The notes under the pieces are model-generated. The model ran no database searches. It saw nothing but the letters and a program-made list of their open reading frames with translations, and was not told where the DNA came from. Positions 1,404 to 20,634 of a stretch of 57,166 bases of DNA are shown in pieces (within the stretch, counting starts at the first letter, position 1; each line of letters opens with the position of its first letter). The DNA lies in the IMG/VR virus record IMGVR_UViG_3300030433_001734, positions 1 through 57,166 of that record. The stretch is one strand, 5' to 3'. The position numbers and the translations under genes were made by a program. This DNA is from a virus. Taxonomy: Duplodnaviria > Caudoviricetes.

Positions 1404-1407
1404 ATCT

Positions 1408-2514: not shown

Positions 2515-2515
2515 T

Positions 2516-5078: not shown

Positions 5079-5092
5079 TTGACATAGATTAA

Positions 5093-5125
5093 CTCAGGAG
5101 GGGAGGACAAAGCCTCCCCGCTGAG
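5093..5125 (-). promoter_or_regulatory. GC-rich intergenic stem-loop (weak terminator or mRNA stabiliser)
   Basis: CTCAG/CTGAG and GGGGAGG/CCTCCCC stems between the SSB-like gene and primase; no strong U-tract. Confidence 0.45.
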
Positions 5126-5134
5126 ATAATAACT

Positions 5135-5716: not shown

Positions 5717-5734
5717 TTTTTTACTTTTAAATTA

Positions 5735-6316
5735 TTAAAATATATCCGTTGAGTCATAACCATCATCTTCGATAGTAGTACTCTCTTCTATTGAATTTAC
5801 TTGCTCTGCAGGTGTAAATTCTGTACCTGCTTGTAGATCCTCTTCTACATCCATATTGTTTATAGTTTCTTCTTCTGTTTCAGCAGCCTCTTCCCATTCA
5901 GATGCACTTGCTTCTACGTCAGTTTCTTCTACATTAGGTTGTAATGTAATCTTAAAGAATTTATAACCTTCATATTCATTATATTCTATACAATCTTCAC
6001 ATACATATAGTTTGTTTTGACCTGTAGAACCTAAGTCATACTCTGATCTTAAATCTCTGTTATGAGGAACATTCTTAATTACTCCTTGTGGATTAACTGC
6101 TACTCCGTTACCATCAATTGCTTTGTATATCTGCACATTTTGCACAGCATCGCCAGCTTCTGGATAAGCAAATCCTACTTTGTTATCTCCTGGTTTAACT
6201 CCCACTCTTGAAAGTAATGCAGGAGACAACTTCATAAGTCCATTATCTCTTAGTTCGATACATAGATCATCACCAAAAGCATTTAGTCTTTCGACTCTTT
6301 TACCTTGTAGTTTCAT
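5735..6316 (-). CDS. Hypothetical protein with long acidic tail
   Basis: 193 aa ORF in operon; tail ends DSTDIF. Confidence 0.6.
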   Translation of the reverse strand: MKLQGKRVERLNAFGDDLCIELRDNGLMKLSPALLSRVGVKPGDNKVGFAYPEAGDAVQNVQIYKAIDGNGVAVNPQGVIKNVPHNRDLRSEYDLGSTGQNKLYVCEDCIEYNEYEGYKFFKITLQPNVEETDVEASASEWEEAAETEEETINNMDVEEDLQAGTEFTPAEQVNSIEESTTIEDDGYDSTDIF

Positions 6317-6317
6317 A

Positions 6318-7001
6318 TTAATTATAATATTTAGTTACTGATTCTATAACTTTACTTATGTCATTAGGTATTTTATTGTTAGCAAACATTCCCTTAGGAG
6401 TCTTTGCTGTAGTAGTACCGTCAGACTGTGTTACAAATGAATGAGTAATTTTACCTGTCTCGTCAGGACTTACGTCCGTAAACAATACAATAGTAAACAT
6501 ACCTTCCATTGTAATAACATTGTCTACTAGTTTACCGATAGTCTTAAACTTAAGTTTACGATTACCTTGTAAGTCAGTAGAAGTTTCTGCATGACCAATC
6601 ATAATAAATGTAATATCATCACGCATGTTTTTACCACCGTTTGCAACTTCCCATGCATGCAAACCGATCTCTGTAAATTTGTCAAAGCCACGCTCGTTTG
6701 CTCTACGCATATACTCGTTAGCCATAACATACTGAAAATCGTCAACAACTACTGTCTTAATATGTGGCATATTTTCATCAATATGCTTCATAATAGAACA
6801 TATAGTTCCTGAATTATCAGATTCTATATAATTACCTTTAGGATTATCTTTAGTAAGTAAAGTATAATTACTTTTCCAACCTCTAAAAGGCATAGGCTTT
6901 TTACCTACATTAATAATAAATGTAGATTTAGGGTCTAGATTTTCTAAACTAGTGGATTTACCTGAACCACTCTCACCGATTATTAAAATTTCTTGTGCCA
7001 T
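6318..7001 (-). CDS. P-loop ATPase (AAA_24/Sak4-like recombination protein)
   Basis: Walker A GESGSGKS, Walker B VVVDD, C-terminal AKTPKGMF. Confidence 0.8.
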   Translation of the reverse strand: MAQEILIIGESGSGKSTSLENLDPKSTFIINVGKKPMPFRGWKSNYTLLTKDNPKGNYIESDNSGTICSIMKHIDENMPHIKTVVVDDFQYVMANEYMRRANERGFDKFTEIGLHAWEVANGGKNMRDDITFIMIGHAETSTDLQGNRKLKFKTIGKLVDNVITMEGMFTIVLFTDVSPDETGKITHSFVTQSDGTTTAKTPKGMFANNKIPNDISKVIESVTKYYN

Positions 7002-7262
7002 TTAATTTAAATCTTTAGTTCTTATTATTACTACATCTCCACATAATGGATCACTAGTATGCCAGTGTAACATAGTAGCTCTATAATTAATAGGTAAGTT
7101 TTGTAACTTTCCTTCTTCATTACATACTATACTATATCCATCTTGTTTTGAAGGCACTACTTCTATATAACCCCCTACAGCTTTTTGTAAATGGGCTAAT
7201 TGGTTTTCTTGGGGAAGATCTAGTGCAGAATCTCCACCACCTGCATGTATTATTACTGCCAT
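7002..7262 (-). CDS. DUF3846-like protein
   Basis: LQKAVGGYIEVV...NEEGKL..LPIN..AT...LCGDVVI pattern. Confidence 0.7.
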   Translation of the reverse strand: MAVIIHAGGGDSALDLPQENQLAHLQKAVGGYIEVVPSKQDGYSIVCNEEGKLQNLPINYRATMLHWHTSDPLCGDVVIIRTKDLN

Positions 7263-8263
7263 TATATATTAAAATTTAGTTTTCCTGGTTCATAATATTC
7301 ATCAACTCTGTTGAATTTTAAATTGTCTAGCATACTTAATACTAATCCTGATTCGCCTTCTCTATTCTTAATCAAGTGCCAATAAATCATAGATTGCTTT
7401 GCATTCATAGGATTTACAATAGGCAAATTATTAGGTCCATATGTTTGTAAGTTAAGCATATAAGGCTTATGACTTACGATTACATTATCTGAACCGTGGA
7501 ATACAGAATCACTACCGAATATATCTTTCTTCATTGGGTAGTGTAACATAGGATTAGCTAATCTTTCTGCTCTTTCTATTTCTCTATTTAATTGACTTAG
7601 TGCTACTATTATACATTTACATTTTTTCTTTATATACATAAACATTCTATATAATTCAGCTAATAAATGTCTTTCTTGTTGACCGTTTCTACCTTTAGTC
7701 AATAGAGTATGATCTAGAAATATAACTGTTCCATAATCATCTCCTTTTAATTTTAGTTGCTCTTCATGAAATTTCATGATAGTATTGTATACTTGTTCAA
7801 CAGTACCAGGCACATCTACATAGTATATATCATACTTAGATATGTCTTGGTTTACTAACTCTTTAGCAACATCAAAGTCAGCGTCTGTTAGTGCCTCAGT
7901 ACTAGAATATAGCTCCGAAACAGTCTTTTGCATCTTAGAAGAAATCTTTCTACCTACCTGCTTCATAGCAAGCATCTCGAAGTTAAATGATAATACTGAG
8001 AATGTTTGGTCCTCATTATGATCAAATAAACTAGTTTCTAATTCATTTGCAATTGACGATTTACCTGAACCTGACATACCGCCTATAGTTACAATAGTAC
8101 CCCATTCTAATCCTCCCATTATGGATTGATTGAGTTTATCCCATCTTGTAGCTAGCGATTTAACAAGTCCCTGTCTTCTGTGATCCATGTAATTTAAAAT
8201 CTCACCAGAAGCCGTGTCTATTCTTTTATACTGTAATAATTGGCTAGATGAGTTTTCCTCCAT
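7262..8263 (-). CDS. dnaB: Replicative DnaB-like helicase
   Basis: GMSGSGKS, FNFEM, IFLDH, ALSQLNR, IKNREG motifs. Confidence 0.85.
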   Translation of the reverse strand: MEENSSSQLLQYKRIDTASGEILNYMDHRRQGLVKSLATRWDKLNQSIMGGLEWGTIVTIGGMSGSGKSSIANELETSLFDHNEDQTFSVLSFNFEMLAMKQVGRKISSKMQKTVSELYSSTEALTDADFDVAKELVNQDISKYDIYYVDVPGTVEQVYNTIMKFHEEQLKLKGDDYGTVIFLDHTLLTKGRNGQQERHLLAELYRMFMYIKKKCKCIIVALSQLNREIERAERLANPMLHYPMKKDIFGSDSVFHGSDNVIVSHKPYMLNLQTYGPNNLPIVNPMNAKQSMIYWHLIKNREGESGLVLSMLDNLKFNRVDEYYEPGKLNFNI

Positions 8264-8897
8264 AGTTCACGTTTTTATTAGGTTTATTTTTATTTCGTTT
8301 TAGTCCTATCAATATATCTTTCCATATCTCTTCTTTTAACCAATTCTTTAAAGTTTTAAGATAGGCAACATTACCAGTAGCTTTTCTTTTATCTATATAA
8401 AATTTAACAGCTACTTGTAGTTGTTGTGGTGTCACTTTCTGTTCTTGTATAATTTTAATATACAAGTCCTTAATTGCTTTCCTTCCTTCTTTTAAATAAG
8501 AAGTCTGCCCACTCGCGCGTGTAACTTTTGTTGGGTACAGTGCTATGAAGTCTTCAAACTCATCAGCGTATAAACTAAGAGAACGTTCAATCAGATCGTC
8601 ATCTCCTAAGAAAGGATTCTCTGATTTTTCGTCAGCAAAGCTGTCTGTCATTCCCTTAATTAAATCTGTACCCTCAAAAGTTATTTCCCATGTACCTAGA
8701 GTGGCATCTTTCGTTTTTAAATATCCTAATTTTTCTAGATGTTCAAAATTAGAAATATGGATAGACTCAATAGATTCTATATAATTTGTCAACATATCTA
8801 ATTTAGAATATGCATGACAATATAATATAAAATGTTGTGTTACCGAAATCTGCTTATCTTTAAGCAGCTCGATAAATGGTCTACCATATGCAATCAT
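8244..8897 (-). CDS. Putative replication initiator/helicase loader (winged helix)
   Basis: LEKLGYL wHTH-like segment, FEDFIALYP and YLKTLKNWL..E.W; immediately upstream of DnaB. Confidence 0.5.
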   Translation of the reverse strand: MIAYGRPFIELLKDKQISVTQHFILYCHAYSKLDMLTNYIESIESIHISNFEHLEKLGYLKTKDATLGTWEITFEGTDLIKGMTDSFADEKSENPFLGDDDLIERSLSLYADEFEDFIALYPTKVTRASGQTSYLKEGRKAIKDLYIKIIQEQKVTPQQLQVAVKFYIDKRKATGNVAYLKTLKNWLKEEIWKDILIGLKRNKNKPNKNVNYGGKLI

Positions 8898-8900
8898 TTT

Positions 8901-10097
8901 TTAATTATTAAGATTAATATCTTCTACACTTGTTACCCAGTGGGTATTGTAGTCTTTAGCGGTTCTCTTCCTCACCCATGATAGCTCTTGGCTACCTGTG
9001 ACATATAAATTTACATATATTGCTGTCTTTCCTTCTTGTAATCTTAATGTTCTTCCTGTTCTTTGAATATTATCTAGAGCTTTAGAACTACCTGCACAGC
9101 AAATACCTAATGAACATTCTGGTACATTTAAACCAGCGTTCAAAGCTTTTACTGAGCTAAGTACATTGTAATCATTTTGATCACCAAAGTCATCTAATAC
9201 TTGTTGACGTTCTTTCTTCTTTAGTTTACTATGAAATAATAAACATTTATCGTCACCGATAGTATCTCTGACATCAGTAGCAAAATCAATACTCTCACTA
9301 AATACTAAAGCTTTCCTATCTGAAAATTTCTCTATAAGTTCTTTAGTAACTGTTAATTTGTTAGAAGCATTGTAACATAACTTCTTACGTTTCTGCATCA
9401 TCATGTAGAATACATTTGCCCATTTCTTCTTGTCTGGGTCATCAGAATTCTTCCACTTGCCTGCGTTTTCAAATGCTGAAAATCTACCACCTAGTTCAGC
9501 TACTGCCATATTATAGTAGTATTGAACTCCGTTGTATTTTTTAGCTTCTTCTGCAGTAAAAGGTACTCCTAAATTAAATACCTTATACACTGAGATTAAT
9601 CCCAGCGATACAGCCCTGTTTAAATCTGTAGTATAAACAATAGGTGCAAACATGTTTAGAAATTCTAAGTATTCTTCATTTTCAGGTGTTGTTGCAGTTA
9701 GACAGTATATCGTATCCCATGTATTGTGTTCATAGAACTTTCTATACTCAGGAGATAATGTAGTATGAACCTCATCAACAATAACAATGTTGTAATGCTC
9801 ATTTCTATATTTATATGCTGTCTGTATACACTGAAAATCTACTCGATCTAGTAAATGTTTTAGATCCCATTTCTCAAATTCATTTAACCATTCGTTATCT
9901 CGTAAGTTTTCAGTTGGTACAATTATTAGTGCACGTTTAAATGGTTCATCCTCTAAAATATCATTTAGAGCTAACAAACCCATTCTGGTTTTACCTAAAC
10001 CTGTAGCAGCAATAGATGTACCTTTCTTTCCAGCATCGTTCCATCGTAATAGATGTTCTCGCTGTTCTTTATCCTTATTTATATTTAATATATTCAT
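8901..10097 (-). CDS. Superfamily 2 helicase (DExH)
   Basis: ATGLGKT, DEVH, LTAT, GLNVP, QRTGRTLR. Confidence 0.85.
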   Translation of the reverse strand: MNILNINKDKEQREHLLRWNDAGKKGTSIAATGLGKTRMGLLALNDILEDEPFKRALIIVPTENLRDNEWLNEFEKWDLKHLLDRVDFQCIQTAYKYRNEHYNIVIVDEVHTTLSPEYRKFYEHNTWDTIYCLTATTPENEEYLEFLNMFAPIVYTTDLNRAVSLGLISVYKVFNLGVPFTAEEAKKYNGVQYYYNMAVAELGGRFSAFENAGKWKNSDDPDKKKWANVFYMMMQKRKKLCYNASNKLTVTKELIEKFSDRKALVFSESIDFATDVRDTIGDDKCLLFHSKLKKKERQQVLDDFGDQNDYNVLSSVKALNAGLNVPECSLGICCAGSSKALDNIQRTGRTLRLQEGKTAIYVNLYVTGSQELSWVRKRTAKDYNTHWVTSVEDINLNN

Positions 10098-10294
10098 TAA
10101 GTTTCGTATACTTTATTAAAAGTAACTAAAAAGATTCCCCATGTTCTTTTTTGTTCAAGACGGACAGGTTGGCCCCAAGGACACATCCCTGGAACCTTGT
10201 CCATCATATCTAAAATAGCATGCTTTAACCCTTCTAAAGTATCAGCCTCTACAAAGTTATATTCATCAATATCGTTATACATTACTTTTCCCAT
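10097..10294 (-). CDS. Hypothetical protein
   Basis: 65 aa ORF overlapping both neighbours. Confidence 0.5.
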   Translation of the reverse strand: MGKVMYNDIDEYNFVEADTLEGLKHAILDMMDKVPGMCPWGQPVRLEQKRTWGIFLVTFNKVYET

Positions 10295-12165
10295 TTATCA
10301 CTTATATTAGTGTCTGCTTTAAGTAAACCAGATGGTAATATAACACGAGCAGCTTGCTCCATAAGAACTTTCATCTGCTCTTTCCATTCATCGATATAAC
10401 TAGTATGACATACAGTATCTATTTGATCGTGTACAGTCATAACAACTTTAACAGGAACTTTATGTTCTTTTATATACTCATGTATATAAACTAAAGCCTG
10501 TTTTGTCATATCAGCGCCTGTGCCTTGTATAGGTGTATTCTTAGAAGCTCGTTCTATAGTACCTAACAATTTCCATCCATCTTTACTTTGCGATAGTCCT
10601 GGTTTCCAATTATCAAACCATCTGATCCGTTTAAAAGGAGCAAATGTTTTTATGTGACCATGTGACGTTCCATACGTTCCCAAAGATACTAAAAATTTGT
10701 GAATTGATGGAAAAATAGTAAAGTATTTTGATATTAATTCCTCTGCTTCTTCTTGACTGATCTTCAAGGTGTTAGCTAATTTATGAGGGCCCATTCCATA
10801 AGCCAAACCAAAGTTAACTGTCTTAACATTAGTTCTTAATTTACCATGCTTTGGACAATTACATTTCTGTTTATGTGACATGTATGCACAGCCTTGTTCA
10901 GCTGCATCTACCCATTCTTGTCCATAAACTAAGTCTGCGCAAATGGAATGTAAATCTTCGCCATTACGTAATGCTTGTAACCACACAGGGTCTTGCGATC
11001 CTTCAGCAATAATACATAGTTCTTGCGAACTATAATCTGAAGACACAAACTGATAGTCTACAAGCCCTGATACAAAACAATTTCTAAATTCATTTGTACC
11101 AGGTATTTGTTGCATGTTAGGTTTCTTACTTGCAACACGTCCTGTATTAAGTATCTGACTAAAAGAGGTATGTATTCTATTATCATAGCCTACATTTTTA
11201 AGAAAGTCTAGCCCATATGATGTAGCTAGTTTCATAGATTCTTTATACTTAATATAGTCTCTAATTAACGGTATCTTTTTGTGGTTACTTAACTCAAAAG
11301 CACCTACAGCTTCTAATCCAGGTACAAGTACTTTAAATACTTTAAGTACCTGACTAGGGCTATCCCAGTTAACAGAGACTTTTCGAATAGTATCTACAGA
11401 AGCAAATAAATCTGTCTGTAAATACTTTTCTTTAAATTGATGTAGTTCTGGTATATGTAGTACATAGCTATCAAGCTTGTTACCAAGCTCTTTTGCTCTT
11501 TCAGCAGATTTAGCGGCAAGGGTTGACCACATAGTTGTGTCCAATCCTATGCCGTTAAATTCTACATCAGCTAATGCTAATGCGGTTTTGTTTTCTAGTT
11601 CTACGGCAGCTTCCAGTTCATTTGCTGGTATGCCATTAGCCTGTTGAAACTCACGCAATGTTATTAAATGTTCTACATCTTTTGCACCATATATTATTTG
11701 ATCATAAGTAAACTCTCTATCTTTCATATTGATAAAAGTTGTTCTTACATCTTTATCTACATCGATACCTAAGTATCTTTCTGTTAAATCTACAAGTCTA
11801 AATCTTAAATTCTTACCATTATGTATAACTTGATCAACTATCATTGTGTCCCAAATATTATTTAATTCAATATTATAAGCACTTCTGATAAATTTATAAT
11901 CAAACTTAACATTATGTAATACTTTAACAATAGTTTCTGACTCTAAAATATCACGTAATGGTTCAATAGAAACTTGACGAGTATCAATTATAAATTGATT
12001 TGCATCGTCACCTATTTGAAACATTATCATTTTATCTTTTAGAAAATCTAATCCAGTAGTCTCAGTATCTACAGCAAGTACAGATTTATCTTCACAGTAT
12101 TTAACAACTTCTTCAATTGTCGCAGTTAACGACTCAGTATTAGTATGTCCTACAAAATAAATCAT
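10282..12165 (-). CDS. polA: DNA polymerase family A with 3'-5' exonuclease
   Basis: Exo I DTETTGL, HNVKFD; motif A DYSSQEL; motif B KTVNFGLAYG; NTPIQG; motif C VHDQI. Confidence 0.95.
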   Translation of the reverse strand: MIYFVGHTNTESLTATIEEVVKYCEDKSVLAVDTETTGLDFLKDKMIMFQIGDDANQFIIDTRQVSIEPLRDILESETIVKVLHNVKFDYKFIRSAYNIELNNIWDTMIVDQVIHNGKNLRFRLVDLTERYLGIDVDKDVRTTFINMKDREFTYDQIIYGAKDVEHLITLREFQQANGIPANELEAAVELENKTALALADVEFNGIGLDTTMWSTLAAKSAERAKELGNKLDSYVLHIPELHQFKEKYLQTDLFASVDTIRKVSVNWDSPSQVLKVFKVLVPGLEAVGAFELSNHKKIPLIRDYIKYKESMKLATSYGLDFLKNVGYDNRIHTSFSQILNTGRVASKKPNMQQIPGTNEFRNCFVSGLVDYQFVSSDYSSQELCIIAEGSQDPVWLQALRNGEDLHSICADLVYGQEWVDAAEQGCAYMSHKQKCNCPKHGKLRTNVKTVNFGLAYGMGPHKLANTLKISQEEAEELISKYFTIFPSIHKFLVSLGTYGTSHGHIKTFAPFKRIRWFDNWKPGLSQSKDGWKLLGTIERASKNTPIQGTGADMTKQALVYIHEYIKEHKVPVKVVMTVHDQIDTVCHTSYIDEWKEQMKVLMEQAARVILPSGLLKADTNISDKWEK

Positions 12166-12674
12166 GCTTCTAATAAATCCATAAAACGTCCTTCAGCAGT
12201 AGCTCCTTCTGCCATAGCTTCAGTAGCTTGTTTATCAGGGACATACATTCCATTTAATTTATGAAACATCATAAATTCTTTATTTATAGATCCTTTATCT
12301 TTACTAAAAGTGTGAACAACAAGTGCATCTTTACGTCTCTTCTCTATTTTTTCTTTTAATTCTATAGATATACTTTTATTCTTTATTTGTTGTTGTTCAT
12401 CTTCTGTAAGCTCGTTTTGCTCTATCATTACTTTATTAACTTCTGATACAAAAGACACATGTTGTGCTTTAGCTGTTTTTGTAATATATCTTATTACTTC
12501 GTCTGTTATATCTCTAAGATTATCTAATTCTAATAAATCTTGAGGTATAGGCAAAATAATATTTCGATTTTCTTCAGTAGTTATATATAGTCTAGGATTT
12601 AATCCTTTGTTATCCTCTAGAAATTTAAAAACATGTTTTAAAGTTCGTAGTTTATGCTCATTCCACGTTAACAT
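12162..12674 (-). CDS. Hypothetical protein
   Basis: 170 aa ORF with ATGA coupling to polA. Confidence 0.6.
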   Translation of the reverse strand: MLTWNEHKLRTLKHVFKFLEDNKGLNPRLYITTEENRNIILPIPQDLLELDNLRDITDEVIRYITKTAKAQHVSFVSEVNKVMIEQNELTEDEQQQIKNKSISIELKEKIEKRRKDALVVHTFSKDKGSINKEFMMFHKLNGMYVPDKQATEAMAEGATAEGRFMDLLEA

Positions 12675-12951
12675 CTCGTAAATCTAGTGCAATTTGTAAT
12701 AAGACAATATATCCAGCTAAATCAGATAAAGTGTCTTCGGTAGCATCACTGATACCATTATTTTTAATTCTCATTAGTTTGTCATCCATGCGTGCGCATA
12801 AAGATGCAACTGCGTCTCCTTTAGAAAAAATACCTAATGGAAATAGAGCGCTGCTCCCATAAGCTTTGTTCTTTTCTAGTAATAGTTTCTCTAAATCTTG
12901 ACATTTAAGAGATATTAAATCTCTTACATTATTATTTATTTCTTTACTCAT
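12658..12951 (-). CDS. Nucleotide-modification-associated (DUF1599/Nmad1-like) all-alpha protein
   Basis: KNKAYG...RMDDKL.R...EDTLSDLAGY pattern. Confidence 0.65.
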   Translation of the reverse strand: MSKEINNNVRDLISLKCQDLEKLLLEKNKAYGSSALFPLGIFSKGDAVASLCARMDDKLMRIKNNGISDATEDTLSDLAGYIVLLQIALDLRDVNVE

Positions 12952-13193
12952 ACTCTTTCGGTATTATCAGCTCTGTAACATTCAGCAGAACAATATCTAG
13001 TATCGTCTTCTAATTCTTCGCCACAAAAGCCACATTTACAAATATCTATTTCTAAGAGTTCTTCTAGTTGTTCTTCAAACTCTTCTCTAATTTTATCTTC
13101 ATCAAGATATACACCACCACTGTCGTAATCATACTCGACAGTGATAGTGATTCCTTTGTCCAGTCTTTGCTGGTCTTCTTTACTAATTGCCAT
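12948..13193 (-). CDS. Small zinc-finger protein
   Basis: CGFCG...YCSAEC. Confidence 0.6.
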   Translation of the reverse strand: MAISKEDQQRLDKGITITVEYDYDSGGVYLDEDKIREEFEEQLEELLEIDICKCGFCGEELEDDTRYCSAECYRADNTERV

Positions 13194-13320
13194 TTGTTCT
13201 CTTTTTTACATGTTTATCTATTTGACTAGCTGTGTACAACCCAAGTACAAAGCCAATAGCCATAAGACAAAGCATAAAGAATGCTGCAATTACTATTTCA
13301 TCTAGTTCTACATATGTCAT
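13183..13320 (-). CDS. Small single-TM membrane protein (45 aa, not in ORF track)
   Basis: MTYVELDEIVIAAFFMLCLMAIGFVLGLYTASQIDKHVKKRTNGN; ATGA overlap with upstream ORF. Confidence 0.65.
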   Translation of the reverse strand: MTYVELDEIVIAAFFMLCLMAIGFVLGLYTASQIDKHVKKRTNGN

Positions 13321-13469
13321 ATCGATTGCCATAATGCTAACAGAATTATTACAAGAACAATCCCACTAAATCCTATCATAACTAACATGTATGATAATTG
13401 TTTATCTGAATTGTATTTTCTTAATTCTTCTGCTATTTTTTTATAATCATCTTTAGCTTTCTTTGCCAT
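13317..13469 (-). CDS. Small single-TM membrane protein (50 aa, not in ORF track)
   Basis: MAKKAKDDYKKIAEELRKYNSDKQLSYMLVMIGFSGIVLVIILLALWQSI. Confidence 0.65.
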   Translation of the reverse strand: MAKKAKDDYKKIAEELRKYNSDKQLSYMLVMIGFSGIVLVIILLALWQSI

Positions 13470-13617
13470 GATTCATAGATAAATAGTTAATAAATTGATT
13501 CTTTAGTTTTGCATGTTGTGCAAACAAAACTAGTACAGCTATAAATGAAAACATTATACCTGATGCAGCCAATAACATAAATGGCCATGTGTCTGGATGT
13601 GTGATGATAGTGTGCAT
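13453..13617 (-). CDS. Small single-TM membrane protein (54 aa, not in ORF track)
   Basis: MHTIITHPDTWPFMLLAASGIMFSFIAVLVLFAQHAKLKNQ...; AT-rich leader before the ATG. Confidence 0.55.
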   Translation of the reverse strand: MHTIITHPDTWPFMLLAASGIMFSFIAVLVLFAQHAKLKNQFINYLSMNHGKES

Positions 13618-13641
13618 AATAAAATAATTTAATTGGTTTAT

Positions 13642-13767
13642 AAAAAAAGATCACCTACGACTTGCACGCCAAGGTCCACTTCGCCACATATTGCGGTTTA
13701 GTTTTTACACCGTTGCTCACGAGGAAACTGTGCACAGTTATTGTCGGGGCAGAATAGACAGTGATCT
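13642..13767 (-). ncRNA. Candidate ~120-nt structured RNA ending in a U-run
   Basis: Closing stem AGATCAC/GTGATCT followed by a U-run; nested CGAC/GTCG and GTGCA/TGCAC pairs; GC-richer than flanks, no ORF. Confidence 0.35.
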
Positions 13768-13770
13768 ATT

Positions 13771-13817
13771 AAGTAAAGAGAGAAGCCCATGTACATGTTT
13801 CCGTTAAACTTCTCTCT
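13771..13817 (-). terminator. Stem-loop downstream of the 13824 gene
   Basis: 9-bp stem AGAGAGAAG/CTTCTCTCT, 23-nt loop, short U-rich tail. Confidence 0.4.
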
Positions 13818-13823
13818 ATTTAG

Positions 13824-14324
13824 TTAAAATATTGCAAAACCACCTGAATGGTCTGCAAATGTAGCAAATTCTAGTGCATTTTCTACACTAAATGGATAAT
13901 TACTTCTCCAGTCATTTTCATCTAAATCATGTCTTTCTAAATTATAAGATGTACAATATAGATCAAGGTTACCTGATCTTTCTGCTTCTCTTATTCTTTT
14001 AGCTATCTTTTTAGATTTAAGTTTAGATATAAAATGACCATCATTAAATGTACCTGAAGTAATATCTTTTTCTGTTAATATATCACTACATAAATCAGTG
14101 ACATACATCCATAAAGGGCGCCACCACCATACATTATTTCTAAAATAAGTACCAGGTGACAGTGCTTCTATTGTCTGCTCATAAGCCCATACTTTTTCGT
14201 GCTTATCTGCAGTATCCATGTCTGGATCAGATTGAACTAGTTTAATCTGTTTGTGAATACTATTTATTTTCTTCACATTTTCTCTAGGCACAATGGGTGC
14301 CTTACCATATAAGTCAAAGCCCAT
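13824..14324 (-). CDS. Hypothetical phage protein (start corrected to MGFDLYG)
   Basis: FRNNVWWWRPLW and YPF...F..SGGF motifs; the track start at 14387 lies inside the tmRNA. Confidence 0.7.
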   Translation of the reverse strand: MGFDLYGKAPIVPRENVKKINSIHKQIKLVQSDPDMDTADKHEKVWAYEQTIEALSPGTYFRNNVWWWRPLWMYVTDLCSDILTEKDITSGTFNDGHFISKLKSKKIAKRIREAERSGNLDLYCTSYNLERHDLDENDWRSNYPFSVENALEFATFADHSGGFAIF

Positions 14325-14356
14325 ATTAATTAGTTTAAAGTTAATACTAGATGTAG

Positions 14357-14764
14357 TGGAGATGGGGGGAATCGAACCCCCGTCCATCCATGTTTGTTAA
14401 AGTACAGATGTACAAGCTTTTAAGTAATTGGTTTTAATTTCTACACCATCGCGTGGTGTCCCGCATATATTACTTACACATTTGGGCCGCGAAGATATTC
14501 CTAGAAGGTACCACTTCCTCGGAGACTGGTAGCTATTAACAGGCCAGTCTATTGTATTAAGTGACAACTCAATATCATAAAACACTTTTTGAAATAACTA
14601 CCTAGGCAGCTAAAGCAAGTTCTACACTTTGTAGTGGTAGAGCACTAGAGTGAGACTCAGCTCCTATCGGAGTGAGCTTCACCACAGAATAACTATTTTC
14701 GCCAGTTAAAAAGCATCGTGCTTGCCGTACAATCGTCTGCATAGTGTCAAAACCAGTCATCCCC
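14357..14764 (-). ncRNA. ssrA: tmRNA (transfer-messenger RNA), 408 nt, CCA not encoded
   Basis: 5' GGGGATGACTGGTTTTGAC; 3' GGACGGGGGTTCGATTCCCCCCATCTCCA; acceptor stem GGGGATG/CATCTCC with G3.U70 and discriminator A; tag frame 14703-14602 GENSY...ALAA-TAG. Confidence 0.93.
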
Positions 14765-15103
14765 TTTCTGTCCTTCTAAATAAGACATATTATCATCAAA
14801 TCCATTTATATAATCTTGGATAGTATTGTAAATATGCTCTGCAGTCTTTTGACCACATCCATCTAGTTCCTTAAAGCTTGGAACTGTCATAAATATTAAA
14901 TGATTATAGTCTAGTATACTATAATTATCTAATACTTTCTTACCTCTACTGTTTAATCTATCATAGATTACAGATCTATGAAACTCTTTAGCTGCAGCTA
15001 ACTGTTCTTCAGCTTGTTTCTTTTTACATTCACGATATTCTAAATAGTTAGGCCCTTTAACGCCTGTGATAAATCTCCAAAGATTTTTAAATAGTTTGAT
15101 CAT
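14747..15103 (-). CDS. Protein with RNA polymerase alpha C-terminal domain-like (HhH) fold
   Basis: LNSRGKKVLDNYSILDYNHLIFMTVPSFKELDGCGQKTAEHI follows the alphaCTD pattern LSxR...L....I.....L...T...L......GxKS...I. Confidence 0.6.
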   Translation of the reverse strand: MIKLFKNLWRFITGVKGPNYLEYRECKKKQAEEQLAAAKEFHRSVIYDRLNSRGKKVLDNYSILDYNHLIFMTVPSFKELDGCGQKTAEHIYNTIQDYINGFDDNMSYLEGQKGDDWF

Positions 15104-15498
15104 AATTTCAGTTTTAGTTTGTTAATAATTGAGTCCATAATAGCTAGAAATGTTCTATTGTCAAGACATTCTAGCTTAATGTCATGTACAATTGGTTCTA
15201 CTTTCTCTTCTTGTTTAGTTGCTTTCCCATCTGAGATATTTTTAAGCATCTCAAGCATCTTTTCAGGAGAGTCAGCGTCCATAATGTCGTCAATCTGTTG
15301 TTTTGCAGATTGTTCGGTGTCGTTTTCACGCTCTACATAAACATGTAGTTTACAATATACTTTAGCATCAGGATGATCTAGTGCATCCTGAGCTGCTTTT
15401 GTTAATTGTTTAACATAGCCATCTAGTGCAATCTTATCATCAAGAGCATTAAGTTGTCGTAATAAATCCTCATGTTTCTTATTTAAATCTACTTTCAT
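15100..15498 (-). CDS. Hypothetical protein
   Basis: 132 aa ORF with ATGA coupling to the next gene. Confidence 0.65.
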   Translation of the reverse strand: MKVDLNKKHEDLLRQLNALDDKIALDGYVKQLTKAAQDALDHPDAKVYCKLHVYVERENDTEQSAKQQIDDIMDADSPEKMLEMLKNISDGKATKQEEKVEPIVHDIKLECLDNRTFLAIMDSIINKLKLKL

Positions 15499-15553
15499 AA
15501 ATTATTGTTTTATAAGATTATTACTAAATAATAAGTTTAGAAATGATATAATA

Positions 15554-15946
15554 CTAAAATTCATCTTCTTTAGTATCATTAATTATCTTTTCTAACTGTT
15601 CTTTGGACACTATGTCCTCAGGTTTAATTGATTCTTTGCGCATTCCAATTGCAAGATCAGCAACCTGTCTTCTCATACCTTCCATTTGATCAATGTGTTT
15701 TGCTTCTGCGGTTCCCATACCAGCAACAAACACAAAACATATTAATTCTTCTAATGTGTTGTATGTATTTTGTTGTAATACTGCCTCTAATATTTCAGAT
15801 AGTCTAGCTTTGTGGATAGGCTGTATACTATTCATTACTTTACCAAAATGTTCTATTTGATCATCAGTAACTTGAAATAAAGATTGTATCGTTTTGTCAT
15901 CATGACGAAGAGAAATCTGTTTAACTAGTTTGTCTAAATTTTCCAT
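15554..15946 (-). CDS. Hypothetical protein
   Basis: 130 aa ORF. Confidence 0.65.
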   Translation of the reverse strand: MENLDKLVKQISLRHDDKTIQSLFQVTDDQIEHFGKVMNSIQPIHKARLSEILEAVLQQNTYNTLEELICFVFVAGMGTAEAKHIDQMEGMRRQVADLAIGMRKESIKPEDIVSKEQLEKIINDTKEDEF

Positions 15947-15965
15947 ACGATTACAAAGTGTTAAT

Positions 15966-16034
15966 AAAAAAAAGAGATACCAAATATAACAACTAAATCC
16001 CTGAAAATCAAGAAAATAGTTGTTAAAATGGTAT
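15966..16034 (-). terminator. Long stem-loop plus U-tract, overlapping a minus-strand TATATTTG promoter motif
   Basis: ATACCA/TGGTAT and TAACAACTA/TAGTTGTTA stems, then CTCTTTTTTTT; TATATTTG at 15988-15981. Confidence 0.45.
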
Positions 16035-16278
16035 AATTATTAAAAACAAAAACCGAAGTACAGCGTCTAATTTTGACAAGTATCTGTTCAATCTAGTATG
16101 CAGTTTCATCTGTTGTAATCAGAATCATGGCAGTGCAGAATAGTCCTTTGGCCCTTTGGGTAATGACGAGTCTTGAGTAATTGTTTTCCAGTATTTAGTT
16201 TCATTTGCGTAATGGGGTTGCAAATTACTTACATTCTACGCCACGTGAAGGCAACTGTTTATTGTAGAACATATAATC

Positions 16279-16395
16279 CTAGCAAATAAATACTAGAATT
16301 ATTAAAATACAGATGACTAATCTGTAAAATAGGATTTCACGCTTGCATTTTGCAAGATCCCATTTAAGTCGTTTAATAAGTTTGACCTTATTCAT
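16279..16395 (-). CDS. Small basic single-TM protein (38 aa, not in ORF track)
   Basis: MNKVKLIKRLKWDLAKCKREILFYRLVICILIILVFIC, starts just after the GOLLD-like RNA. Confidence 0.55.
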   Translation of the reverse strand: MNKVKLIKRLKWDLAKCKREILFYRLVICILIILVFIC

Positions 16396-16403
16396 AATTA
16401 TAT

Positions 16404-17097
16404 ATAATGGGCTGAGATTACACCATTATGCACACATCTTTCGTTGTTTAGTTCCTATGTAGAGGTTTACAACTTATCCACTATACTCTCATATAGTAAT
16501 GTGCAGTGACGGTTAGTTAGACTAACCACTTCTAATGTTATTACCTACTCACGAGCTACTCAAACGAGAAATAAAGCCGCTAAACTCTAAATCAGTCTTT
16601 CATTCGCAAACAGAATCACCTTGAGGGATCATCCACTCTCCTTCTAGAGGAGATTTAGTCACCTTTCAGTAATAACAGGCCAACACTTGTTCTTCTTTGA
16701 TTATTAATTGTTTTGCACAGTACTGTCCAGGATGTGGTTGGTCCACAAATGCTTCGTCACCTTTTGAGTGACAAAATACATTACATCCCAGGTATAACTT
16801 TCCATCGTTATAGTATTTCATGATAATCTTATTCCCTAAGACTCTCATTTATACTGATATATACGCCTCACTAGCTTGGATACTAGATTGACACTATATC
16901 TACAGTTTTTCTTATTGATGTCACCATCTCACATCCCAATAATCTTAGGATGCACACATACACTCAGACGATCGTCCTCTGTTGCCGTGTGATATACTGC
17001 TTGCTTAGATTGACCATAATTAAATGGCAACAAATGGTGTTTGTGCTCTTGCACCACTGTCTTTAGTCACATTACTGTGATTATCGGGCTAAGCCCC
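16404..17097 (-). ncRNA. GOLLD-like giant ornate ncRNA (~700 nt; 5' end approximate)
   Basis: Hairpin-dense stretch with no credible ORF. Motifs UUUUGUCACUCAAAAGGUGACGAA, GUGGUUAG..CUAACCG, GUGGAUAA and terminal-loop UAAUCUCAG occur in the order I recall for the GOLLD 3' domain; not verified by search. Confidence 0.75.
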
Positions 17098-17134
17098 AAT
17101 ATTTTATAATAATTATTTAATAATTATTTGTTAC

Positions 17135-17169
17135 AAAAAAGAAAAAGAAGGAGCACACGAATGTGCCCC
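17135..17169 (-). terminator. Intrinsic terminator
   Basis: GGGGCACA-TTCG-TGTGCTCC followed by TTCTTTTTCTTTTTT. Confidence 0.85.
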
Positions 17170-17181
17170 AACTTATATCAT

Positions 17182-17712
17182 TTAGTTACCGAATACATCA
17201 TCTGATGTAGATTCAGTAGCTGGCTGAGTATCAGTCTCTTCGAAGTCAGATACTTCGTCAAAAGCAGCTTCACCAGCAATAACACCGTCAGATGTCATTA
17301 GTTGGTGACCTTGAGCTTTAAAGACAGATGTTATAGTCTCGCCCTTCAATACTACTGAAGTATAAGACATAACTTCACGACCGTCAACTGTATAAGGAAC
17401 AACAGATTTAGTCACGATGTCGCCAGGTATATTCTTACCGACAAATTGTTGGATTAAAGCAGGGTTACCAGCTTTCCAAACAGGATTGTCTTCAGAGTCA
17501 GTTGTTTGAGCAATGACTCTAGTTCTTTCTGCGCCAAAAGGGTTAGAAGGGTCTCTAAAAACAGCGATGTAGTATTTTCTACCGTCTGAAGTTAGATTTA
17601 GTTTACCGTTGATGCCGTCTTTATCATCAACTAATTGTGCATCAGCTTTTGCTGATAATCTTGTAGCTACTAATTGTAACTGAGCATTTGGATCGATTGT
17701 GTTCATGTCCAT
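17182..17712 (-). CDS. Hypothetical protein, beta-rich with acidic tail (possible ssDNA/RNA-binding)
   Basis: 176 aa ORF with its own terminator; tail ends STSDDVFGN. Confidence 0.7.
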   Translation of the reverse strand: MDMNTIDPNAQLQLVATRLSAKADAQLVDDKDGINGKLNLTSDGRKYYIAVFRDPSNPFGAERTRVIAQTTDSEDNPVWKAGNPALIQQFVGKNIPGDIVTKSVVPYTVDGREVMSYTSVVLKGETITSVFKAQGHQLMTSDGVIAGEAAFDEVSDFEETDTQPATESTSDDVFGN

Positions 17713-17863
17713 GGTTAAAAATATTTAATTGGTTTATACTTGTATTATACTCTAAAAAGAGAGACAGTTTGCGTTCAAGTGCGACTCCGTTAGGCATCCA
17801 CAATGTCTAGGAACAAATTGGCTTTTATTAAATGGTGTGCTCCATTCCTTTTGATATGGTAAA

Positions 17864-17974
17864 TCATAAATGTCCATGTTTTTTCATGTGGTCATATTTA
17901 GTATGATAATATTCTGGGTCTTTCATGACTCTCCAGAATCCAAATAGATTACACATTTTAATAAGTTTTATCAT
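17864..17974 (-). CDS. Small protein (36 aa, not in ORF track)
   Basis: MIKLIKMCNLFGFWRVMKDPEYYHTKYDHMKKHGHL; ATGA coupling. Confidence 0.45.
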   Translation of the reverse strand: MIKLIKMCNLFGFWRVMKDPEYYHTKYDHMKKHGHL

Positions 17975-18081
17975 ATTCTGATGTATTCGTACTTATTAGT
18001 CTTACAACATAGTCCACGAAGACGGTAATCAATACCGTTGTAGGTGTATGTTGGTCCGAGATACTGTGATGAACTAATCAT
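17971..18081 (-). CDS. Small protein (36 aa, not in ORF track)
   Basis: MISSSQYLGPTYTYNGIDYRLRGLCCKTNKYEYIRI; ATGA coupling at both ends. Confidence 0.5.
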   Translation of the reverse strand: MISSSQYLGPTYTYNGIDYRLRGLCCKTNKYEYIRI

Positions 18082-18230
18082 TTTTTATAGCCTATCTCAA
18101 TACTTACAAAAGGAAAAAGTATAATGAGGCGTTTTGTGTTAGAGAAGTGATCGATACCTAGACCTAAGCCAATGAAAGGCACAAGGTCTATGTTTAGAAT
18201 AAACTTCCCATTGAGTTTAACTAAATTCAT
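18078..18230 (-). CDS. Small hydrophobic protein (50 aa, not in ORF track)
   Basis: MNLVKLNGKFILNIDLVPFIGLGLGIDHFSNTKRLIILFPFVSIEIGYKK. Confidence 0.55.
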   Translation of the reverse strand: MNLVKLNGKFILNIDLVPFIGLGLGIDHFSNTKRLIILFPFVSIEIGYKK

Positions 18231-18344
18231 AAGCGAAATAATTAAGGGTTAAACAATGAGGTAATCACATCAGATATTATTTTGGTTATGATCTAAATCA
18301 ATAGTCAATAGCAATATAATTCTATCTGTTCGTGATAGTTTGTG

Positions 18345-18578
18345 CTACTCGGCAAGAGCAGACTGTGAATCCTGAAGCATTTGAGTAATACATTCAGTTT
18401 CTTGTGTCATTGCACGCTTGTCTTCATACGACAATTCTTCGTGTTTAATAGTATCTTCTAGAGCACTTACTAAAGTTCTAGCTAGTCTACTAAGTTTGTA
18501 ACATTTTCTATCCAATGACTTGATAGATTTATCTCTTTTCTTAAGCGCAGAGATCGCACTATTAATATCCATTTCCAT
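18345..18578 (-). CDS. Hypothetical coiled-coil protein
   Basis: 77 aa helical ORF. Confidence 0.6.
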   Translation of the reverse strand: MEMDINSAISALKKRDKSIKSLDRKCYKLSRLARTLVSALEDTIKHEELSYEDKRAMTQETECITQMLQDSQSALAE

Positions 18579-18778
18579 AACAAAAGGTATTAAGGTTTTT
18601 CCACTAACGCTATATTGTAGTAGTGGATTCTACAATGTCGTTTTCCTAAAAAGGGCAGTTTTGAGGGCTTTGAGCATTAGTATACGCTCGCGCACTCTCA
18701 AACGACCAATGTGAGTGACAAACACACAATGGCCAAGATTTAGTGAGGTTGTTTGATACGTGAGCATGAATAAAATAG

Positions 18779-18846
18779 TTGTTTAAGCCTGGATTGTGTA
18801 CAATAATTATTGCAGATGGTGGTACAAAGTATTTGTTTAAGCCTGG
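18779..18846. repeat. 14-bp direct repeat TTGTTTAAGCCTGG x2
   Basis: Exact copies at 18779-18792 and 18833-18846. Confidence 0.8.
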
Positions 18847-18852
18847 GCAACG

Positions 18853-18881
18853 AAAAGGGAACAGGCCTAAGCCTGTCCCTT
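18853..18881 (-). terminator. Intrinsic terminator
   Basis: AAGGGACAGGC-TTAG-GCCTGTTCCCTTTT directly after the stop of 18888..19253. Confidence 0.7.
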
Positions 18882-18887
18882 GAGCTT

Positions 18888-19253
18888 CTAGAACGGAGCT
18901 TCCTCTGATGAGTCAGCTTCTTCTTCGAAGTCAGCCTCCTCATCGTCTGGAGCGTAGTCCCAGGTGTCAGACGCAAAGGCCAACACATTACCTACTTGTA
19001 GGTCTGCGAGTGGCATTGGCACCTGATCTGCAAACACCGCCTTTACGCGTGTAGGTCTGCAGTCGATGACACCCTTAGGTAATGAATCATCACCTAGTCC
19101 CTGACGGAACTTGAAGAGTGTGTACTCTGTGCCGTTGGATGCAGTCTGCACTACTACTGCGTCAGTTTCTTGAGCTGAAGCCTGACCTGCTTCCTTAACC
19201 ATAGGTGCTACGATTGTAGCGTAGATGGTCGTGCTCGAATTGTCTAAAGCCAT
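18888..19253 (-). CDS. First leftward (early) gene; beta-rich protein with acidic tail ending EEAPF
   Basis: 121 aa ORF, visibly GC-richer than neighbours, own terminator. Confidence 0.7.
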   Translation of the reverse strand: MALDNSSTTIYATIVAPMVKEAGQASAQETDAVVVQTASNGTEYTLFKFRQGLGDDSLPKGVIDCRPTRVKAVFADQVPMPLADLQVGNVLAFASDTWDYAPDDEEADFEEEADSSEEAPF

Positions 19254-19436
19254 ATCAATAAGGTTTTAGATTAAGCTACCCAGAGTTGGAGATTCAATAT
19301 CTCTCTTTCAGGTACGGGGGTAGTTTCCGTCCAAAATTTAGCGGGGGAGTTTGTTTCGTAGTGGGTTAAACGCTCGATTACTTACACATTTTTTTTAATT
19401 TTCTATTTTAAAATTTTTTTTATATATTTTTTTTCG

Positions 19437-19444
19437 TAGTTTTG
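19437..19444 (+). promoter_or_regulatory. Bacteroidota sigma-A -7 element (TAGTTTTG)
   Basis: Matches TAnnTTTG; follows a long T-rich tract and precedes a structured non-coding block. Confidence 0.45.
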
Positions 19445-19680
19445 TCCCATCACCTATTATATGTATAGGGACACATCGCCAAGAGAATAAAGGGTTTAAT
19501 GAAGCGGTGCAACTACGTCTTATGTATGCACTTCTTTAAGACTGCATACGCCACCCACTTTAATTAGCGGGGAAGGACTGAGGTAGAAACTCAGTCTGGA
19601 ATGGAGCCTAAGGTGGCTCCCCCTCTCCTGAGGTTTTCTGGGAATTCGACAACACACTTGCGGGAGGGATAAGGTGTTGT
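19443..19680 (+). ncRNA. Candidate ~240-nt structured ncRNA of unknown family
   Basis: Five stems plus two possible pseudoknots in an ORF-free GC-rich block between two promoter motifs. Confidence 0.5.
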
Positions 19681-19718
19681 ATCTCTACTCATAGCTACTC
19701 AAATACTTATACATATAC

Positions 19719-19749
19719 TTGCATACTAAATTTAAATATTATATATTTG
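19719..19749 (+). promoter_or_regulatory. Bacteroidota-type promoter (TTG-N20-TATATTTG)
   Basis: TTG at 19719, TATATTTG at 19742-19749, 25 nt before the first rightward gene. Confidence 0.7.
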
Positions 19750-19774
19750 TAAAGTATAACTATATAAATATATA

Positions 19775-20146
19775 ATGAAGAGAGTAAAGAAAGAAGTTCT
19801 AAAAAGTGCTGACTTTTACCCGAAATATCTTAAATTGATTAATGTGATCTTACCAGATCCGTTAACTCAACGAGAGATAGATGTGCTATCTGCCTTCATG
19901 AGTTTGAAGGGGGATTTAGTGGAGTTAGATAGGTTCGGCACACAAGCAAGAACTGTAGTACGTAAGAGACTAGGTTTTAAAACTCATTCTAATTTAGATA
20001 ACTATATTAAGTACTTTAAGAACAAGGGGGTTTTAGTGTCCAATCCTAAAACTAAAAAACTAGAACTAAACAAAAGAATAGAGATTCCTAAGAATGAGAA
20101 GGAGGTTTCTTTGTCATTTGTTTTTAATATAAAAGATCATGAGTAA
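19775..20146 (+). CDS. Winged HTH DNA-binding protein
   Basis: LTQREIDVL...VRKRLG.....LDNYIKYFKNKGVL. Confidence 0.6.
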   Translation: MKRVKKEVLKSADFYPKYLKLINVILPDPLTQREIDVLSAFMSLKGDLVELDRFGTQARTVVRKRLGFKTHSNLDNYIKYFKNKGVLVSNPKTKKLELNKRIEIPKNEKEVSLSFVFNIKDHE

Positions 20147-20369
20147 TATAGAGCAAGATACAACGATAGAAGATCATATCAATATACTACTGAGGGATTT
20201 TGTGTTCAAATATGAAGAACGCCCTGAATTAGTAGTATTAGATATAGGATCTGCTTCTGCATTAAAAGAAGAGTTAGGGTTATCTGCATTAGATGAATTG
20301 AAGCGATACTCAGGGATGGATGTTGCTTTCGTAATGGACAGCGATGGACAAACAATCAAGTTTTATTAA
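20139..20369 (+). CDS. Hypothetical protein
   Basis: 76 aa ORF in operon. Confidence 0.55.
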   Translation: MSNIEQDTTIEDHINILLRDFVFKYEERPELVVLDIGSASALKEELGLSALDELKRYSGMDVAFVMDSDGQTIKFY

Positions 20370-20634
20370 AGACTTAAGTAAGAAGTATGACCTACCTGAG
20401 ATTGTAGTTCGTACTGCTGTAAGATCTCAGTTTGGATTTGTAAAAGAATCTATAGAAAAGAAAGATCCAGAGGGGGTTTTATTGCATTCCTTTGGAACAT
20501 TTAGAATAAAACGAGGCCGTGTGCATGGATTAATTAAAGGATATGTAAGAGGTCTTCGAAAAAAAATGGGCAAAGATTTGAATTTAATAAAAAAAATTAA
20601 GTATCTTTGGTCCATAAGAAATAAAGTTTATTAA
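20344..20634 (+). CDS. HU/IHF-like DNA-binding protein
   Basis: IKDLSKKYDL...VLLHSFGTFRIK signature. Confidence 0.65.
   Translation: MDKQSSFIKDLSKKYDLPEIVVRTAVRSQFGFVKESIEKKDPEGVLLHSFGTFRIKRGRVHGLIKGYVRGLRKKMGKDLNLIKKIKYLWSIRNKVY

Follow-up and report, generated by a model that had tools for sequence, protein, structure and literature searches.

When the coding sequence of a message runs into a transfer-messenger RNA (tmRNA), does maturation of that tmRNA cost the message its stop codon, and is such a loss put to use? This question is raised by a 57,166-nt stretch of viral DNA (IMG/VR record IMGVR_UViG_3300030433_001734, positions 1 to 57,166; hereafter the window), in which a 118-aa open reading frame (ORF) ends inside a one-piece tmRNA gene (ssrA) on the same strand (Table 1). 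RNase P generates the 5' end of tmRNA, and the initial annotation of this DNA had proposed that processing of a shared transcript would leave a nonstop mRNA, so that the encoded protein would be tagged and degraded while trans-translation works and would accumulate when it fails. Here, the overlap is confirmed and found to be conserved throughout the ORF family, and related lineages with ordinary stops suggest that it may well be an inherited by-product of tight gene packing.

Results

The stop codon of the 118-aa ORF lies inside a complete tmRNA

The tmRNA scored above the Rfam gathering threshold and aligned with the whole RF00023 model, and ARAGORN placed its boundaries at 14764..14356 on the minus strand. 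The acceptor stem read in the sequence is intact (GGGGAUG / CAUCUCC) and carries the G3.U pair and the discriminator A of a tRNA-Ala-like acceptor; in a related locus (L011) the A5-U pair is replaced by G5-C, a compensatory change. Direct reading of the 3' end of the 118-aa ORF gave ...GAA GGA CAG AAA GGG GAT GAC TGG TTT TGA, where the first base of the GGG codon is G1 of the tmRNA (14764) and the TGA occupies tmRNA nt 16-18. Direct reading and the Rfam and ARAGORN placements therefore agree with the initial annotation that the stop of the upstream gene lies inside the tmRNA: the window holds a same-strand upstream coding sequence (CDS) whose stop is 3' of G1 of a valid tmRNA, with an overlap of 18 nt. 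G1 also falls exactly on a codon boundary, as had been claimed, yet this is expected by chance in one case out of three and was given little weight.

The other two frames at the junction behave differently from each other, one stopping at nt 6-8 (UGA) and the other continuing into the tag frame. The latter is the 52-aa ORF 14760..14602, with an AUG at tmRNA nt 5; it was rejected as a feature because it is open in the window and closed in the related locus L002.

The run-on is conserved in all known members of the ORF family

Judged by its conservation, the 118-aa ORF is a real gene. Its ATG shares bases with the stop codon of the ORF before it (ATGA), and a search of 5.8 billion clustered proteins returned seven homologues that are 59-93% identical to it. 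One distant member, P0009 (149 aa), and two fragments were added when 1.84 billion representatives were searched with a profile, whose other matches were fragments or helix-hairpin-helix (HhH) repeat proteins. The alignment of eight family sequences contains 57 invariant columns, and every indel in it is in frame; the ratio of nonsynonymous to synonymous substitution rates (dN/dS) was 0.27-0.41 in the five pairs computed. By this evidence of function the ORF counts as the CDS of a CDS-t(m)RNA overlap, although it lacks the Pfam match on which a published survey of such overlaps relied.

In all five loci that encode a homologue (the window, L002, L003, L006 and L007), the ORF stop lies inside the tmRNA and G1 stands at a codon boundary. 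A further seven loci (L004, L005, L008, L010, L012, L014 and L015) are the same contigs again and were not counted. L002 and L006 are near-identical, with tmRNAs that are 100% identical, and L003 and L007 are close to each other, so that the five loci represent about three independent lineages at the DNA level. The overlap is 18 nt in the window versus 30 nt in the other four loci, where two extra bases in the tmRNAs shift the stop to a UAG at nt 28-30.

The same junction is visible in the proteins. All nine proteins with a C-terminus have G-D-(D/S) at this point, in five of which the tmRNA at the junction is deduced from the peptide; the junction peptides are GDDWF, GDDWI, GDDLDFD(T/R)L, GDD (P0007, whose end may be a contig-end cut) and GDSEFDSL (P0009). 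Together, these sequences place the stop at three different positions in the tmRNA, nt 10-12, 16-18 and 28-30. The residues past G1 vary with the indels of the tmRNA itself and, since the tail changes with them, the protein does not hold the tmRNA-encoded residues. Ahead of G1, from the conserved MSYL motif onwards, the family is hypervariable: indels of 1, 3 and about 14 codons occur there, all in frame, and a single change would turn most codons of this stretch into a stop (in the window, GAA, GGA, CAG and AAA). Because the run-on is kept in five of five loci and nine of nine proteins, it goes beyond chance, and homologues ending before the tmRNA, which would have marked it as accidental, did not occur within the family.

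Sister lineages end their upstream genes with ordinary stops

A 22-nt piece of the tag region led to three further viral contigs, L009, L011 and L013. ARAGORN missed their tmRNAs; Rfam finds the tmRNA in L011 and L013 (75.2 bits), which are identical across the region, and in L009, where the tmRNA is cut by the contig end, the 5' 192 nt were read directly. Identity to the window tmRNA is 65% over the full length in L011 and 75% over 186 nt in L009, and the tag core is the same.

In L011 and L013, a GOLLD RNA is followed by ORFs of 172, 161 and 125 aa, by two small ORFs and by the tmRNA; then comes the downstream ORF known from the window, here starting 27 nt behind the tmRNA. BLASTP shows homology of the 161-aa ORF to the 132-aa ORF of the window (E 1e-10), and the 125-aa ORF passes the PF03118 cut-off for the C-terminal domain of the RNA polymerase alpha subunit (alpha-CTD; 27.1 bits, cut-off 23.8). 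The last small ORF encodes an unrelated 58-aa product and stops 5 nt before G1, the alpha-CTD-type gene lying two genes further upstream. In L009, an alpha-CTD ORF directly precedes the tmRNA (PF03118, 35.0 bits, cut-off 23.8) and is closed by a TAA of its own, 90 nt before G1. Beyond this stop, at 205-236 (minus strand), comes a hairpin of 14 pairs and T8 that resembles a terminator and ends 12 nt before G1; the L009 tmRNA must therefore arise either by read-through or from a start overlapping the hairpin. By gene order, the window ORF is the positional counterpart of the alpha-CTD gene that is normally ended in the sister lineages. Since these lineages have ordinary stops, neither the tmRNA nor the alpha-CTD-type gene needs the overlap.

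The minus strand of the window is tightly packed. Among 14 consecutive ORFs (78..12951), 6 of the 13 junctions overlap, by 1, 4, 4, 14, 17 and 20 nt, lengths that may be overestimates because start codons were assigned mechanically. Looking further afield, distant homologues of the downstream ORF were located in 19 loci, all without a tmRNA at the gathering score; GOLLD was present in 3 of the 19, and the upstream genes were unrelated in the five of these loci that were read.

A possible remote likeness of the encoded protein to alpha-CTD and HhH proteins

No family was found for the 118-aa ORF in Pfam or PHROGs, a sequence search of the PDB with its product returned no solved relative (best E 1.4), and an AlphaFold2 model built from eight sequences reached a pLDDT of 44, too poor for a fold search. 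The family profile matches P0011, a protein with four RNA polymerase alpha-CTD repeats (itself PF03118, 3.8e-28), at E 9.1e-5 over the whole library; hhalign of the family against P0011 gave E 5.7e-4 over 53 columns. Against the alpha-CTD core of the L009 ORF the profile gave E 1.9e-3 over 42 columns, and merely 12 columns align with the L011 ORF. The first Atlas match was an alpha-CTD cluster at 0.86, taken as a lead only. None of six family members (window, P0009, P0002, P0003, P0004 and P0007) reached the PF03118 gathering score, and P0009 matched HHH alone in Pfam (E 0.072). The protein may thus be a divergent alpha-CTD/HhH-like one, a remote likeness that falls short of PF03118 membership. 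Searches of Pfam, PHROGs and PDB sequences revealed no likeness to a ribosome rescue factor, and the protein is not of the ArfA type in this respect.

The tmRNA encodes an unusually long tag

The initial annotation had placed the resume codon at GGC 14703, with a tag beginning GEN, and this reading agrees with the Rfam alignment; the frame is open from GGC in all six aligned tmRNAs despite a 3-nt indel. ARAGORN instead chose a later resume codon in the same frame, at 14661 (AESHSS...). The tag ends in the hydrophobic ...VELALAA, followed by TAG, and the endings among relatives are LALAA or LAVAA, which resemble degradation tags. Counted from GGC, the tag is unusually long, with 33 aa in the window and 34 aa in the L011 tmRNA. 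It is conserved at the beginning (GENSY) and at the end (ALPLQSVELA[LV]AA) and varies in between. The indel that separates lineages preserves the frame, which speaks for translation of the tag along its full length.

A second ARAGORN call, a permuted tmRNA at 13733..14447 (minus strand), was rejected as a false positive: what it takes for a 'tag' is the C-terminal end of the conserved downstream ORF, its T-arm is that of the real tmRNA, and the Rfam tmRNA_permuted model scored only 19.5 bits there. SmpB (PF01668) was not found at E <= 1 on the 57-kb contig, which is an estimated 61% complete. The 3' end of the tmRNA was also tried as a pointer to the host and proved uninformative, as its exact 29 nt occur in more than 120 genomes of many phyla; the tags that ARAGORN assigns in eight of these genomes were of no help in placing the resume codon.

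Transcription signals around the junction

Two metatranscriptome runs of one sample (X10 and X12) contain an identical 336-nt contig that covers 14391..14726, the body of the tmRNA. None of the RNA contigs listed covers 14727..15680 or bridges G1, and assembled contigs cannot show ends or levels. Position 14726 was rejected as an RNA end, because the contig from a DNA run breaks there too, marking an assembly branch point. RNA-library contigs of two runs also cover 16564-17000 and beyond, in the GOLLD region. The RNA-library contigs say nothing about co-transcription in either direction.

Sites resembling sigma-70 promoters were not more frequent than expected by chance (38 versus 31.8 +/- 5.8 in shuffles); the best one, upstream of the ORF at 15164..15137, is conserved in only one of four aligned loci. 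No perfect TAnnTTTG, the Bacteroidota-type motif, occurs within 400 nt upstream of G1 in six sequences, and the matches with one mismatch fall in coding sequence. The direct repeats of 12900..20500 did not reveal a motif shared near the tmRNA. From the ORF end to the tmRNA end, the sequence contained no terminator-like site. The virion RNA polymerase of another crAss-like phage, phi14:2, makes early transcripts that share no motif upstream (bioRxiv 10.1101/2020.03.07.982082), so motif scans do not decide against a start inside the ORF.

The locus belongs to a marine crAss-like phage

PHROG matches include a portal (1.4e-190), a large terminase (3.6e-128) and a major head protein (7.6e-123), besides a family A DNA polymerase and a helicase. 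A portal tblastn search retrieved 160 phage records, the best being Flavobacterium phage Fpv1 (40% identical), with Cellulophaga, Bacteroides and crAssphage records among the others. On the strength of its portal, terminase and major head protein, the virus is a marine crAss-like phage, and its host therefore probably belongs to the Bacteroidota. Isolate phages gave no blastn match to 13600..16900, and P0009 and P0007 used as queries yielded no new viral loci.

Transcription diverges near 19.5 kb, and the tmRNA lies on the strand of the replication genes. The order on the minus strand is GOLLD, the 130-, 132- and 118-aa ORFs, the tmRNA and the 166-aa ORF (Table 1). The last of these is syntenic in all tmRNA-bearing relatives and had no match in Pfam or PHROGs. 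GOLLD, ORFs and tmRNA follow one another in this order in every relative that has the tmRNA (L002, L009, L011 and L013 checked). A Pistol ribozyme stands upstream of GOLLD in L009, L011 and L013 (67-69 bits), the coordinates of GOLLD and Pistol being 1867-2241 and 2550-2616 in L009 and 10630-11034 and 11396-11471 in L011; no Pistol match was obtained at E <= 1 in the window between 12600 and 19800.

Table 1. Features of the tmRNA locus and its gene row (positions in the window)
Feature	Position	Strand	Remarks
One-piece tmRNA (ssrA)	14354..14764	-	Rfam RF00023, 66.6 bits (gathering 47), model 1-374 of 374
Tag frame	14602..14703	-	Resume GGC 14703..14701; tag GENSYSVVKLTPIGAESHSSALPLQSVELALAA; stop TAG 14604..14602
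118-aa ORF	14747..15103	-	Alpha-CTD/HhH-like core (FKELDGCGQKTAEHIY); no stop of its own before the tmRNA
Overlap, 18 nt	14747..14764	-	Last five sense codons and TGA of the ORF = tmRNA nt 1-18
GOLLD RNA	16409..16791	-	Rfam RF02032, 218.6 bits (gathering 150); about 1.6 kb upstream of the tmRNA
130-aa ORF	15554..15946	-	First ORF after GOLLD in the same-strand row
132-aa ORF	15100..15498	-	Directly upstream of the 118-aa ORF; L011 homologue in the same position (E 1e-10)
166-aa ORF (MGFDLYGKAP...)	13824..14324	-	Starts 29 nt after the tmRNA 3' end

Several other elements were noted in the window and its relatives. The noncoding stretch after the 166-aa ORF shares the blocks ATAGATCACTGTCTATTCTGCC and GTGGACCTTGGCGTGCAAGTCGTAGGT between lineages (window about 13650-13790, minus strand; L002 about 4400-4512; L011 about 6950-7110, minus strand), and L014 seems to be without it. 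The stretch had no Rfam match at E <= 1, and its alignment from four loci proved too ragged for folding. A 23-nt direct repeat (13620-13642 and 17716-17738, 91% identical; minus strand TATAAACCAATTAAAT(T/A)ATTTTA) directly precedes the start codons of two minus-strand ORFs (13617 and 17712) and may be a shared leader or promoter element. The structural module contains two giant ORFs on the plus strand, 28703-34456 (1917 aa), which includes a lysozyme-like stretch (PHROG endolysin, 3.7e-07), and 40049-44554 (1501 aa); crAss-like phages typically have a virion RNA polymerase, which one of the two may encode. Finally, a segment of L011 (6216-6329, minus strand; the same as L013 2947-3060) has a direct repeat of about 26 nt (AAGAATAGAATGAGTAAAATACATAT) on both sides. 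It recalls the tmRNA of mycobacteriophage DS6A that consists of the tRNA-like domain only, which is mentioned as a possible inhibitor of trans-translation (PMC4131195).

Discussion

The explanation to which we give about even weight is that very tight packing of genes produced the overlap as a by-product that has been tolerated and inherited. This reading is drawn from the packing itself and from the sister lineages that place a stop 5 nt before G1. The third ORF of the row would have lost, or never had, a stop of its own; it extends into the tmRNA by 18 nt, and by 30 nt in most relatives. Because the ORF stop lies inside the tmRNA, a full-length ORF message must enter the tmRNA and, with no intergenic room for a separate unit on either side, a shared transcript and loss of the stop at the RNase P cut are the logical expectation. 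The tmRNA would then be matured from the same long transcript as the ORF: on transcripts that reach the tmRNA 3' end, the tRNA-like domain would fold and host RNase P would cut at G1, which would take away the ORF stop with the five sense codons before it and leave a message that ends ...GGA CAG AAA. Ribosomes on this stop-less message would be rescued by trans-translation with the host or phage tmRNA, the product would be tagged with Ala + GENSYSVVKLTPIGAESHSSALPLQSVELALAA, and the protein yield would be lowered by some fraction. We accordingly read the overlap not as a purpose-built ArfA-like sensor but as the situation of Carsonella smpB-ssrA. Two points weigh against this explanation. No stop has been gained before G1 in any lineage of the ORF family, although pure neutrality would predict some; in a set of few and related sequences, this hints at selection for reading into the tmRNA. 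The family has also been seen only beside a tmRNA (six matches among the 1.84 billion representatives).

These two points would be expected if the overlap had been selected as a nonstop feedback, in which the protein is degraded while trans-translation works and accumulates when it is exhausted, in the manner of ArfA, or as a timer of early-gene expression. The hypervariable tail has remained free of stops although rich in near-stop codons, no known family member, not even the most distant one (P0009), is without the overlap, which occurs with three stop positions, and the tags end in degradation-like LALAA or LAVAA. Such selection is nevertheless unlikely in our view: ordinary stops stand upstream of related tmRNAs (an alpha-CTD-type gene in L009, an unrelated small ORF in L011), the protein is without rescue-factor likeness, and inheritance of a harmless run-on predicts the same pattern. 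Thus, of the nonstop-mRNA circuit first proposed, the overlap, its conservation and the absence of a spacer stood, whereas the circuit did not fare well against the ordinary stops of L009 and L011 and the lack of an ArfA-like protein.

Translation might instead gate maturation of the tmRNA. A terminating ribosome shields about a dozen nt on each side of its A site, and ribosomes at the stop (nt 16-18 or 28-30) would cover the 5' strand of the acceptor stem, so that folding and the RNase P cut would take place mainly when ORF translation is sparse and tmRNA would rise when ribosomes are scarce or stalled. The stop does lie within or just past the acceptor-stem strand (nt 1-7) in every lineage, but with positions at nt 10-12, 16-18 or 28-30 there is no fixed geometry, L011 and L009 carry a related tmRNA without such an overlap, and the idea is pure inference; we hold it to be very unlikely. 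Quite unlikely, too, is that no nonstop message arises in practice. Most of the tmRNA could come from transcription that begins within the ORF, for instance by the virion RNA polymerase, or ORF transcripts could be translated and decay before the tRNA-like domain forms, the overlap being shared DNA only. The motif-free virion-polymerase transcripts of phi14:2 (bioRxiv 10.1101/2020.03.07.982082) and the L009 hairpin, which suggests an own start or read-through in that lineage, would fit an internal start, while no conserved promoter-like site was found (38 versus 31.8 +/- 5.8; best site in one of four loci; no TAnnTTTG). Moreover, a full-length ORF message still holds the first 18-30 nt of the tmRNA, with no terminator-like site between. 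That the ORF is no gene or the tmRNA call wrong would agree with the absence of a Pfam or PHROG family and the pLDDT of 44; this is close to refuted by the dN/dS values, the in-frame indels, the 57 invariant columns in eight sequences and the ATGA coupling on the one hand, and by the tmRNA score above gathering over the full model with the compensatory acceptor-stem change on the other.

RNase P is known to shape neighbouring messages elsewhere. In animal mitochondria, its cut at the 5' end of a tRNA sets the 3' end of the upstream mRNA (tRNA punctuation), as the putative cut at G1 would define the 3' end of the ORF message. Mitochondrial punctuation can remove part of a stop, which polyadenylation rebuilds there; we know of no such stop repair in bacteria, where the message would stay stop-less.

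The closest precedent is bacterial. In Carsonella smpB-ssrA, a same-strand CDS enters the tmRNA 5' end, maturation should leave a nonstop mRNA, and the overlap is treated as a possible but unproven feedback (PMC4131195). That survey counted 250 same-orientation overlaps with an upstream CDS among 115,660 t(m)RNA genes, affecting about 1 in 15,000 mRNAs. As described there, the C-terminal residues of the overlapping protein are 'apparently random' and set by the depth of CDS intrusion, as they are here. Carsonella is a reduced endosymbiont, in contrast to the phage studied here, and the upstream gene in the phage is alpha-CTD/HhH-like instead of SmpB, so that no self-referential loop is formed. 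The idea of a nonstop message by overlap is thus already published for Carsonella, and the phage case is a further, well-conserved member. E. coli arfA is likewise regulated through a nonstop mRNA (PMC10107115), and the proposed scheme shares with it a processing cut in the coding region that yields a stop-less message under trans-translation control. The cut is made by RNase III at a hairpin in arfA and would be made by RNase P at the tmRNA here; ArfA is a rescue factor that is active when truncated, and the phage protein, whose truncated form is not known to be active, has no likeness to it.

Among phages, tmRNAs are described in the OM43 phage Melnitz and in pelagimyophages; a tmRNA was found in 2.3% of phage genomes, and marine cases made up only 2.5% of the one-piece forms (PMC9004378). 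The mycobacteriophage Bxz1 group and Bacillus phage G are also listed with a tmRNA (PMC4131195). The window resembles Melnitz and the pelagimyophages in carrying a complete ssrA in a lytic-type phage, inside an operon and with no SmpB on the contig (61% complete). It differs from these phage tmRNAs in that its one-piece tmRNA belongs to a crAss-like phage, lies beside GOLLD, encodes a 33-aa tag and has a 5' end overlapped by a CDS. A limited literature search, made mainly at the level of listings, returned no phage case of a CDS-tmRNA or CDS-tRNA overlap, although supplementary files may list some, and in the same scope no description of a GOLLD-tmRNA cassette or a crAss-like tmRNA cassette.

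The main addition made here is therefore a phage example of the published overlap idea; a one-piece, long-tag tmRNA beside a GOLLD RNA in marine crAss-like phages is also documented. It is distinctly unlikely, in our estimate, that the run-on has been selected to couple the small alpha-CTD-like protein of DNA-binding type, perhaps a transcription factor, with tmRNA maturation and ribosome traffic. Busy translation would then shield the acceptor strand and yield full-length protein, whereas under sparse translation RNase P would free the tmRNA and make the message a nonstop substrate whose product is tagged. If true, this coupling would be a phage-built link from transcription control to ribosome-rescue capacity. 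If the cut at G1 occurs, with or without such selection, the family would be a natural, clade-wide phage case of RNA processing that makes a defined nonstop message. The sister lineages, one with a stop 5 nt before the tmRNA and one with a stop and a terminator-like hairpin, offer comparators, and the system is suited to asking what price neighbouring genes pay when RNase P processes embedded t(m)RNAs and whether phages make use of it.

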